Shown: piece after piece, positions 4,903-6,405 of the stretch | Layout of the letters: every line of letters begins with the position of its first letter | How positions within the stretch are numbered: the stretch's first letter is position 1 | Source: a virus | Length of the DNA: 36,434 nucleotides | IMG/VR virus record: IMGVR_UViG_3300009149_000122 | Reading direction: 5' to 3' (one strand) | The notes under the pieces: generated by a model | The model's input: only the letters and a program-made list of their open reading frames with translations | The model's database searches: none | What the model was told of the DNA's origin: nothing | Position numbers and translations under genes: made by a program

Positions 4903-5838
4903 ATGTCAAGTACACGACCACCGCTCATTATTCATCACAAAGGGTGCAACGATGGGATTTGTGGGGCCCTGATTTTGTGGATAGGGCTGTCCGACGCAGA
5001 GTTGCGTGCCTACCACTATAACTGGGAACCCCCTACTGACGATGATCTTCGTGACCGTGACGTTTGGATGGTTGACTTCAGTTTTCCTAGGGAAACCTTG
5101 GAGCACATAAACGAGGTGGCCAATCGTCTTGTTGTGCTCGACCACCATGGAACCGCCGAAGCCAATTGTGTAGGACTTGACTTTGCTACCTTCGATATGA
5201 ATAAGTGCGGGGCCATGTTGGCTTACGAACGAATGGAAGCGGAGGGGGTCCTCGATCTATTTAGCGAGAGCAGCCGTAGTATGTTACTGCGTCTTGTGCA
5301 GTACGTGCAGGACCGTGACTTGTGGTTGTGGGAGATGGAAAACAGTAAGGCGGTAAACGCGTGGCTTGCAACTTTTCCAAAAGATCTTCCGTCTTGGGTC
5401 TGGATTCTTGACATCTTTTGTGACGCGGACGCTACGCTTATGCTGCCTCAAGTTGTGAAAGAGGGCGAGGCAATTCTACGGAGCAATAACAATCTAGTTA
5501 ACATCGTGGTTTCCCAAGCGTGGAGAGGCACCGCGCTCCCTTGGATGGGTAAGCCTCGCGTAACTGCGTGGATTGCAAACACGCCTATTTTACAGTCGGA
5601 CGTTGGGCACGCGCTCGTTGAACGTGGTGACACTGATTGTGCGGTCATGTGGCGGCGTGCTTCCGGGGGTCGGTATTTTTATAGTATTCGGTCTCGTGTA
5701 TCGGGTGGCATAGAGGGTGGAACCTTTGACACTGCGGCGCTAGCTTCTATATTTGGTGGGGGAGGGCATAAGGCGGCCTCTGGGTTTACCAGCGACCTAC
5801 CGCCATGGAAACTGTTTGAGGAGGACACTGATGAGTGA
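4903..5838 (+). CDS. DHH/DHHA1 family phosphoesterase (NrnA-like nanoRNase/pAp phosphatase)
   Basis: motifs HHKGCNDGICGA (motif I), VVLDHHG (DHH), GGGGHKAASGF (DHHA1 GGGH); ~311 aa like NrnA; AAAGGTA SD. Confidence 0.7.
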   Translation: MSSTRPPLIIHHKGCNDGICGALILWIGLSDAELRAYHYNWEPPTDDDLRDRDVWMVDFSFPRETLEHINEVANRLVVLDHHGTAEANCVGLDFATFDMNKCGAMLAYERMEAEGVLDLFSESSRSMLLRLVQYVQDRDLWLWEMENSKAVNAWLATFPKDLPSWVWILDIFCDADATLMLPQVVKEGEAILRSNNNLVNIVVSQAWRGTALPWMGKPRVTAWIANTPILQSDVGHALVERGDTDCAVMWRRASGGRYFYSIRSRVSGGIEGGTFDTAALASIFGGGGHKAASGFTSDLPPWKLFEEDTDE

Positions 5839-5883
5839 CAGTACAGTAAAAGAAGCGTACCCACGCAGTAATGAGGAAATGCT

Positions 5884-6405
5884 ATGAGCTGGTTTTCAGT
5901 AGACGTTGAGGCCGACGGTCCTATTCCAGGTGATTATTCGATGATCGAGATCGGCGCCGTGGTAGTTGAACCGGGCCTAACCAAAACCTTTCACGGAAGG
6001 CTTCGTCCGATATCGGATAAGTGGGACCCTCCGGCACTAGCGGTAAGCGGTTATTCACGCGAGCTCACCTTGAAGTTCGGTGATCCAAAAGTAGTCATGC
6101 AGGATTTTGGTGATTGGATAGAGGCGGTGTCCAAAGGTCGTCCACAGTTCATTGCAGACAACAATGGTTTCGATTGGATGTTTGTCTGTTGGTATTTCCA
6201 TCACTTCTTGGGGTGGAATCCCTTTGGGTATTCTTCAGCAAACATAAACTCCCTTTGGAAGGGTATGGAGCGGGATGCGTGTAGCAGCTTTAAGTGGATG
6301 CGCAAGACGAAGCACACCCACAACCCTGTGGACGACGCGAGGGGTAATGCTGAAGCCCTCCTTAAAATGCAGGAGATGGGTTTGCAGATAAAGTTTGACA
6401 GCTAA
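5884..6405 (+). CDS. DEDDh 3'-5' exonuclease (oligoribonuclease/RNase T-like)
   Basis: Exo I FSVDVEADG, Exo II FIADNNGFDWMF, Exo III HNPVDDARGNAEAL; 173 aa; GAGGAAAT SD. Confidence 0.65.
   Translation: MSWFSVDVEADGPIPGDYSMIEIGAVVVEPGLTKTFHGRLRPISDKWDPPALAVSGYSRELTLKFGDPKVVMQDFGDWIEAVSKGRPQFIADNNGFDWMFVCWYFHHFLGWNPFGYSSANINSLWKGMERDACSSFKWMRKTKHTHNPVDDARGNAEALLKMQEMGLQIKFDS

Follow-up and report, generated by a model that had tools for sequence, protein, structure and literature searches.

A phage-encoded Cap18-family exonuclease beside a divergent DHH/DHHA1 phosphoesterase in the tRNA-rich region of an uncultured tailed phage

Known phage countermeasures against nucleotide-based immunity either cleave the finished messenger (Acb1, Apyc1 and the ring nucleases) or sponge it (Acb2, Acb4 and Tad1/2). 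Here we describe two adjacent genes from a 36,434 nt stretch of DNA (IMG/VR record IMGVR_UViG_3300009149_000122; 'the window' hereafter), a genome fragment of an uncultured tailed phage, the first encoding a divergent DHH/DHHA1 phosphoesterase (open reading frame (ORF) A) and the second a DEDDh 3'-5' exonuclease of the Cap18 family (ORF B). The closest characterised relatives of ORF B are the 'Exo' enzymes of the antiphage signalling system based on cyclic oligonucleotides (CBASS), which cleave pA[2'-5']pG, pppA[2'-5']pG and 2'-5' oligoadenylate, that of S. marcescens having no detectable activity on long DNA or RNA (bioRxiv 10.1101/2025.03.04.641389). Exo intercepts the pppA[2'-5']pG released by cGAS-like cyclases without binding the cyclase, thereby suppressing cyclic GMP-AMP (cGAMP) synthesis and setting the CBASS threshold (preprint 10.1101/2025.03.04.641389), and according to a 2026 preprint Cap18-family exonucleases lower cGAS-type signalling in trans by cutting the released 2'-5' intermediate, that of human cGAS included. 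Phage copies go unmentioned in the Exo preprint, and our literature search found no characterised phage DHH or DEDDh anti-CBASS protein; that DHH enzymes of jumbo phages counter CBASS or type III signals has already been published as a prediction (PMC7824862).

A Cap18-family exonuclease

ORF B (5884-6405, + strand; 173 amino acids) matches the PADLOC model for the CBASS 'Effector/Exonuclease' over its full length (E=6e-37), whilst the Pfam models Rv2179c-like and RNase_T score just below cut-off. Its best solved relative is PDB 7T2S (E=1.6e-26), identified by two papers as Cap18 of E. coli upec-117, a CBASS-associated 3'-5' exonuclease; the two proteins share 40% identity over 167 residues and are structurally near-superposable. 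The DEDDh residues D7, E9, D97, H146 and D151 are invariant in 23 sequences including E. coli Cap18, and N93 and N112-P113-F114-G115 are likewise invariant across phage, bacterial and Cap18 sequences. By these sequence comparisons ORF B is a member of the Cap18/CBASS Exo family and not of Orn. An earlier note on this DNA, made from its letters alone, had called the protein Orn-like, which proved wrong at the family level, as sequence searches returned no Orn match. Orn and REXO2, small homodimeric exonucleases acting on dinucleotides, share the DEDDh fold with ORF B but belong to a different family. DexA (exonuclease A) of T4 is likewise a phage-encoded DEDDh 3'-5' exonuclease and provides a precedent for oligonucleotide salvage by phages.

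The Cap18/Exo proteins of E. coli upec-117, V. cholerae and S. marcescens have the same DEDDh residues, N-x3-D and NPFG as ORF B at a length of ~175 amino acids; they are encoded in CBASS operons, whereas ORF B is phage-encoded, lies in an accessory region and has a putative 2'-5' specificity. When the six proteins of 2786-7455 were compared with CBASS models, nothing matched except the exonuclease itself. In the V. cholerae enzyme (VcExo) residues P15, V55, N97 and F120 are tied to substrate geometry and D49 and E51 make base contacts (10.1101/2025.03.04.641389). In a mapping by the spacing of catalytic residues, made without the VcExo sequence, the first four correspond to the conserved P13, V54, N93 and F114 of ORF B and D49 to D48, and E51 is replaced by Pro50, giving PPAL instead of the usual PEAL.

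Relatives of ORF B number at least about 8000 proteins; identity is 63-75% for the best 120, most of which are encoded on long contigs of bacterial origin. The gene is present in 80 species genomes at 62-69% identity to ORF B (Chitinophaga, Mucilaginibacter, Runella, Planctomycetota, Verrucomicrobiota, Acaryochloris, Myxococcota and others). ORF B is nearer (63-75%) to this very large set of stand-alone bacterial genes than to Cap18, and would thus fall, as far as identities tell, in a highly conserved 'orphan' branch to which Cap18 proper is sister at ~40% identity. The stand-alone proteins, typically of 172 amino acids, occur in Bacteroidota, Planctomycetota, Verrucomicrobiota, Cyanobacteria and Myxococcota; at 63-69% identity across phyla they form a very large family that is seemingly uncharacterised, and their conservation suggests a housekeeping role that is likewise uncharacterised. 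Amongst viruses the gene is rare, being found on 192 of 2.9 million IMG/VR contigs, and a relative also occurs in three huge-phage genomes of 462-735 kb. A search for conserved partners of the viral gene returned lineage-specific synteny only (terminase, portal, clamp, dUTPase-like and PolC-like genes, as recognised by eye from their sequences).

A divergent DHH/DHHA1 phosphoesterase and the promoter before it

ORF A (4903-5838, + strand; 311 amino acids) was assigned by profile, alignment and AlphaFold (AF2) model to the DHH/DHHA1 phosphoesterases (phrog_4771; putatively COG2404, 'NrnB-like'). It matches phrog_4771 'DHH phosphoesterase' over residues 5-300 (E=5e-56), whilst falling under the Pfam gathering cut-offs for both DHH (PF01368; 24.5 vs 28.1 bits) and DHHA1 (PF02272; 13.9 vs 25.9 bits); it is a divergent DHH subfamily, the membership of which comes from the PHROG profile, the motifs and the structure. 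There are 756 homologues in metagenomes, to many of which JGI gives the COG2404 name 'oligoribonuclease NrnB/cAMP/cGMP phosphodiesterase (DHH superfamily)' and not that of NrnA, and relatives with 24-35% identity were found in 107 phage records, including phiCbK-like, EL-like, Brevundimonas, Ralstonia and Vibrio phages. Membership of this family of large phages is clear, and its proteins from cultured phages carry putative annotations that vary from RecJ to oligoribonuclease. One JGI gene call (P0121) is only 256 amino acids long and would remove motif I; the 311 amino acid start at 4903 is backed by other gene calls and by full-length homologues. By eye, an adenylosuccinate-synthetase-like gene stands near six viral DHH loci (e.g. 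L175, 2254-3378), often together with a family A DNA polymerase, which is reminiscent of the PurZ/DpoZ aminoadenine-genome phages.

The motifs of ORF A are H12-x2-C15-x-D17-G18 (motif I), D58 (II), D80-H81-H82 (III) and D137-R138-D139 (IV), with S232, R263 and the GGGH of residues 286-289 (G286-G287-G288-H289) in the DHHA1 domain. All of these residues are invariant in a 40-sequence alignment apart from H12 and C15, which are at least 90% conserved in the family, one homologue (P0131) having Asp at the C15 position. In the family form of motif I, H-x2-C-x-DG, Cys replaces the first Asp of other DHH proteins and, from the literature on family II pyrophosphatase and RecJ, would sit at a metal site; the phage DHH subfamily with this Cys is seemingly uncharacterised. 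Judging from the alignment, the catalytic apparatus has been preserved except that a single ligand is altered, in a manner specific to the family. The two unrelated folds that the earlier note had placed back to back thus both retain their catalytic residues, and the loss of catalytic motifs that would, by that note, have spoken against its reading was not found, DEDDh, DHH motifs II-IV and GGGH being invariant and the first Asp of motif I alone being changed to a family-conserved Cys.

The AF2 model of ORF A is confident (predicted local distance difference test score, pLDDT, 93.6) and Foldseek places it, at 13-17% identity, next to stand-alone DHH-DHHA1 enzymes, namely a functionally uncharacterised H. 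pylori protein, pAp phosphatase, NrnA, Rv2837c/CnpB, TM1595, DhhP, GdpP and PggH. Taken over all comparisons, the structural neighbours are either of this stand-alone type or RecJ cores, and act on short oligonucleotides, pAp or cyclic dinucleotides. NrnA, CnpB (Rv2837c), TmPDE, PggH, DhhP and the GdpP catalytic domain resemble ORF A in having two domains, DHH and DHHA1, in ~300 amino acids and in keeping motifs II-IV and GGGH, but are only 13-17% identical to it and have H-x3-D-x-D in motif I. The description 'NrnA-like' in the earlier note therefore stands at the level of the fold (Foldseek) and fails for the sequence family, as no NCBIfam match was obtained at E<=0.1 and only the last ~60 residues align to NrnA chains, at 14-17% identity; the family profile, too, aligns to solved structures mainly through its DHHA1 end. 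RecJ was also rejected as an identity for ORF A, since the OB-fold and further domains that make the single-stranded DNA hole are missing and the 311 amino acids hold the DHH-DHHA1 core only.

Both ORFs lie on the + strand exactly where the earlier note had put them (4903-6405), with a gap of 45 nt in which no terminator-like site was found, and a GAGG ribosome-binding site precedes ORF B. On comparative grounds both are considered genuine genes, because relatives exist on other contigs (59-64% identity for the first gene, 73-75% for the second) and because the same phage was reassembled from three other samples, both genes having identical protein sequences there. A sigma-70-type promoter-like site, TTGACA-16-TATACT (4831-4858, + strand), matches 11 of 12 consensus positions and is situated directly after a tRNA-Leu(cag) gene, 45 nt ahead of the start codon of ORF A. 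In an alignment of the window with three related contigs its -35 block, CTTGACATTG, is invariant and its -10 keeps T-A---T. Six matches to a more relaxed pattern, TTGACA-N15-19-TAHNNT, are present in the window, always on the + strand, against 0.94 expected, and none of 100 shuffles reached six. The consensus promoter proposed in the earlier note is thus supported by comparative sequence evidence, because it is conserved across related contigs; early expression is putative, a timing that we infer. A second promoter-like site, TTGACA-16-TATATT (5726-5753, + strand), is a pattern match only; it falls within the 3' end of ORF A and precedes the start of ORF B by 130 nt, and at that place the relatives carry other genes.

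Just downstream of the first promoter the same alignment of four contigs contains a further invariant block, ATCTTGTAAAAYAGG, a conserved motif of the 5' untranslated region (5'-UTR) or promoter-proximal region (ATCTTGTAAAACAGG; 4867-4881, + strand). Four + strand copies of this 15-nt motif are present in the window (694-708, 4867-4881, 8656-8670 and 13551-13565); all of them closely precede an ORF, and two are immediately 3' of tRNA genes. Their number is weakly above chance (four vs 1.4 expected, with five of 100 shuffles reaching four), and the motif may act as a promoter specific to the phage or as an operator in the 5'-UTR.

Possible substrates and purpose

From the families and conserved residues described above, both enzymes probably hydrolyse small oligo- or dinucleotides. 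In the mechanism that we propose, the host-type (sigma-70-like) promoter in a tRNA-rich accessory region would drive early transcription of the two genes and of the small ORFs behind them. ORF A, with the bimetal site and GGGH clamp that are also used by NrnA, CnpB, TmPDE, PggH, DhhP and the RecJ core, would cut 5'-phosphorylated di- or oligonucleotides, possibly pAp or cyclic dinucleotides, and ORF B would shorten very small substrates by their 3'-terminal nucleotide, such that jointly they would convert low-molecular-weight oligonucleotides to mononucleotides. The characterised CBASS-associated Exo members prefer 2'-5'-linked dinucleotide intermediates (10.1101/2025.03.04.641389).

Such enzymes might serve to clear nucleotide immune messengers along with their linear intermediates and products (CBASS, type III CRISPR), a purpose that we advance tentatively, and with the same reserve we put forward the completion of nucleic-acid breakdown, for salvage of nucleotides or turnover of nanoRNA. 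The relationship of ORF B to Cap18 gives the anti-CBASS idea a concrete footing; the idea is weakened because the closest Exo relatives are stand-alone chromosomal genes and the pairing is no conserved module. In a more specific form, which we find rather doubtful, the phage would have captured Cap18/Exo and would express it early against CBASS, destroying the released 2'-5' linear intermediate so that the cyclic signal stays below the activation threshold, with ORF A removing the 3'-5' linear and cyclic species that Exo spares. If true, this would be an anti-CBASS activity acting on the catalytic intermediate rather than the finished messenger, and one widespread in large phages (at least 192 IMG/VR contigs). 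A phage-encoded Cap18-family member that has an intact active site, follows a conserved promoter of the early type and is related to genes of many large phages may thus point to a third class of evasion, and ORF B is a candidate, still unproven, for dampening nucleotide-based immunity. The finding would be routine if the enzymes were ordinary nanoRNases for nucleotide recycling; both are additional members of families already described, and a new kind of system has not been demonstrated.

Several points weigh against the explanation that we propose. The substrates of ORF A and ORF B are assigned by homology. E. coli Cap18 was reportedly first described, by Liang and colleagues in 2022, as a non-specific 3'-5' DNA exonuclease, and its degradation of DNA in vitro would suit a role for the two genes in DNA recombination, repair or replication, in which the DHH protein would be a minimal RecJ-like 5'-3' exonuclease on single-stranded DNA and ORF B an ExoX/TREX/DnaQ-like 3'-5' enzyme. 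DHH genes of other phages are mostly found in replication or nucleotide-metabolism surroundings, with DNA polymerase A (nine loci), methyltransferase (eight), SNF2 helicase (six) and adenylosuccinate-synthetase-like (six) genes as neighbours, and the distant DHH gene of L029 lies beside RecA, a calcineurin-type phosphoesterase (Metallophos, possibly SbcD-like) and a clamp-loader gene; some phage annotators also use the RecJ label. ORF A, however, is without the OB-fold and extra domains for RecJ processivity on single-stranded DNA, its 311 amino acids being the size of the nanoRNase/phosphodiesterase subgroup, and this region of the window has no replication or recombination genes, the neighbours being tRNAs and GNAT-like, NADAR and ARPP genes. 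We regard a function in DNA metabolism as quite improbable.

The bacterial relatives of ORF B bear on the immune reading in the same direction. Amongst 83 bacterial Exo loci (80 examined by clustering of neighbours and three by Pfam-annotated lists) there was no CBASS gene and no conserved neighbour, the clustering of ORFs around the gene in the 80 genomes giving genus-level synteny only. Because these nearest relatives are stand-alone and have no CBASS neighbours, the 2'-5' specialisation may be confined to the CBASS-linked branch.

The pairing itself was sought around the Exo gene in viruses (17+80 loci), around the DHH gene in viruses (80 loci) and metagenomes (80 loci) and at several loci of huge phages, with 6-8 kb inspected on each side. 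Outside the clade of the window the pair was found in L137 and L074 only, and a widespread conserved DHH+Exo module was rejected; by profile search it was not found at ~100 other viral Exo loci or ~160 other DHH loci. In Brevundimonas phage Papperlapapp, the one cultured phage of which the annotated neighbourhood was inspected, no DEDDh exonuclease is annotated beside the DHH gene. The closest relatives keep the gene order with two unrelated genes inserted between the pair (DHH, 288 amino acids, 110 amino acids, Exo in L005 and L028; DHH, 152 amino acids, 96 amino acids, Exo in L027), and because the pair is absent elsewhere and split in these relatives, a joint function is not required.

These splits, the absence of either gene within 6-8 kb of the other at most loci and a 252-kb contig that holds both genes ~100 kb apart are what would be expected if the two were incidental neighbours, that is independent accessory genes with no shared pathway, an explanation that cuts across the assignment of roles and that we consider possible, if less than probable. 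On the other side, the order DHH then Exo recurs in L137 (IMGVR_UViG_3300025319_000079), where the DHH protein is 35% identical to ORF A, the DHH stop overlaps the Exo start (ATGA) and the next gene after Exo is Nuc_deoxyri_tr2; L074 has 6.5 kb between the two genes and a SLOG-family gene beside DHH. The pairing is sporadic; for a gene as rare as Exo (192 in 2.9 million) three independent co-localisations exceed the naive random expectation, yet both genes favour large phages, and for this reason functional coupling of DHH and Exo is only possible. The Nuc_deoxyri_tr2, SLOG, NADAR and ARPP-type families have been discussed as processors of small nucleotide derivatives in phage-host conflict (PMC9503650).

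The Exo gene of L137 (6826-7702) is split: an HNH_3 endonuclease ORF continues in frame from its first ~16 codons (MTLIFVDCEGHGPAPG), and the remainder resumes without a start codon after a repeated 'LIFVDCEG' segment, which from the sequence looks like a homing-endonuclease or intron-type insertion.

tRNA genes and other features of the window

Directly upstream of the promoter and DHH gene is a pair of tRNA genes on the + strand, tRNA-Leu(gag) (4660-4744) and tRNA-Leu(cag) (4748-4823), detected by ARAGORN and Rfam, and the identical pair is found 84-89 nt upstream of the DHH gene in L005, L027 and L028. This position, and its retention in the three related contigs, would suit processing or repair of RNA ends, with Exo trimming the 3' trailers or damaged ends of phage tRNAs in the manner of RNase T and the DHH enzyme clearing nanoRNA or terminal phosphates, so that both genes would serve the tRNA island. 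Viral Exo is often located within same-strand tRNA arrays: a tRNA lies within 8 kb at 22 of 80 IMG/VR loci, the nearest being 16-930 nt from Exo in ~8 independent lineages with up to 29 tRNAs in 16 kb (e.g. L098, L051 and L044), whilst amongst 80 DHH loci taken as controls a single one has a tRNA within 1 kb. A Thg1-like gene (tRNA-His guanylyltransferase/3'-5' polymerase, a family of tRNA 5'-end repair) is next to Exo or close by in three lineages of viruses (L022, 6530-7342; L009/L016, 4565-5365; L021, 11039-11863).

The association may, however, be in part a matter of genome architecture, as amongst contigs of at least 100 kb the share with a tRNA within 8 kb was similar by hand count (~32% for Exo, ~24% for DHH). 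Most of the viral Exo loci (58 of 80) are without a nearby tRNA, the bacterial homologues have no RNA-processing neighbours, and the S. marcescens Exo, the sole Cap18-family enzyme so tested, had no detectable activity on long RNA and DNA. Nor is CCA consistently encoded in the tRNAs near Exo (at most one of nine in the window, by a noisy string test). We judge a role in RNA-end processing to be unlikely. An RNase-T-type stop at an encoded CCA is not indicated, there being no consistent CCA in Exo-adjacent tRNA arrays.

Neither tRNA-Leu gene of the window encodes the 3' CCA, the bases after the discriminator being TCA and CTC, and most of the nine tRNA genes in the window are like them in this, which would require a CCA-adding enzyme after trimming. 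For the tRNA found by ARAGORN at 8926-8997 the anticodon is undetermined (Rfam score 58.6 bits), and a weak tRNA-like match at 9257-9321 comes from Rfam alone, at 32.2 bits, just over the gathering score.

The window further contains two HNH endonucleases, the large terminase subunit (27656-29938) and the portal protein (30384-32756), with nearly everything on the + strand; a DNA-level comparison with the phage collection returned nothing alike except tRNA matches. Besides the nine tRNAs, its first 18 kb encode proteins with an ARPP-1 (E=8.5e-22) and a NADAR (E=4e-32) domain and contain a weak GNAT-like match. Three accessory genes of this tRNA-rich region, at 10151-12289, 12600-13328 and 15322-16047, encode a 712 amino acid protein, the ARPP-1 protein and the NADAR protein, respectively. 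The 712 amino acid protein has only a weak vWA match, beyond which its identification as Ro60/TROVE, with a link to an RNA-quality-control particle, was unsupported; L005 carries the same pair of large protein and ARPP. NADAR domains have been considered in connection with the early, counter-defence and RNA-repair regions of phages, and ARPP as a component of predicted host conflict systems (PMC9503650); in the literature the ARPP-1 and NADAR families are linked to ADP-ribose and nucleotide conflict systems. In the sole long ORF on the minus strand (18561-21128; 855 amino acids) the shoulder domain of the major vault protein (E=8e-25) is accompanied by a vault repeat and by a weak match to SPFH/Band 7, which is unusual for a phage.

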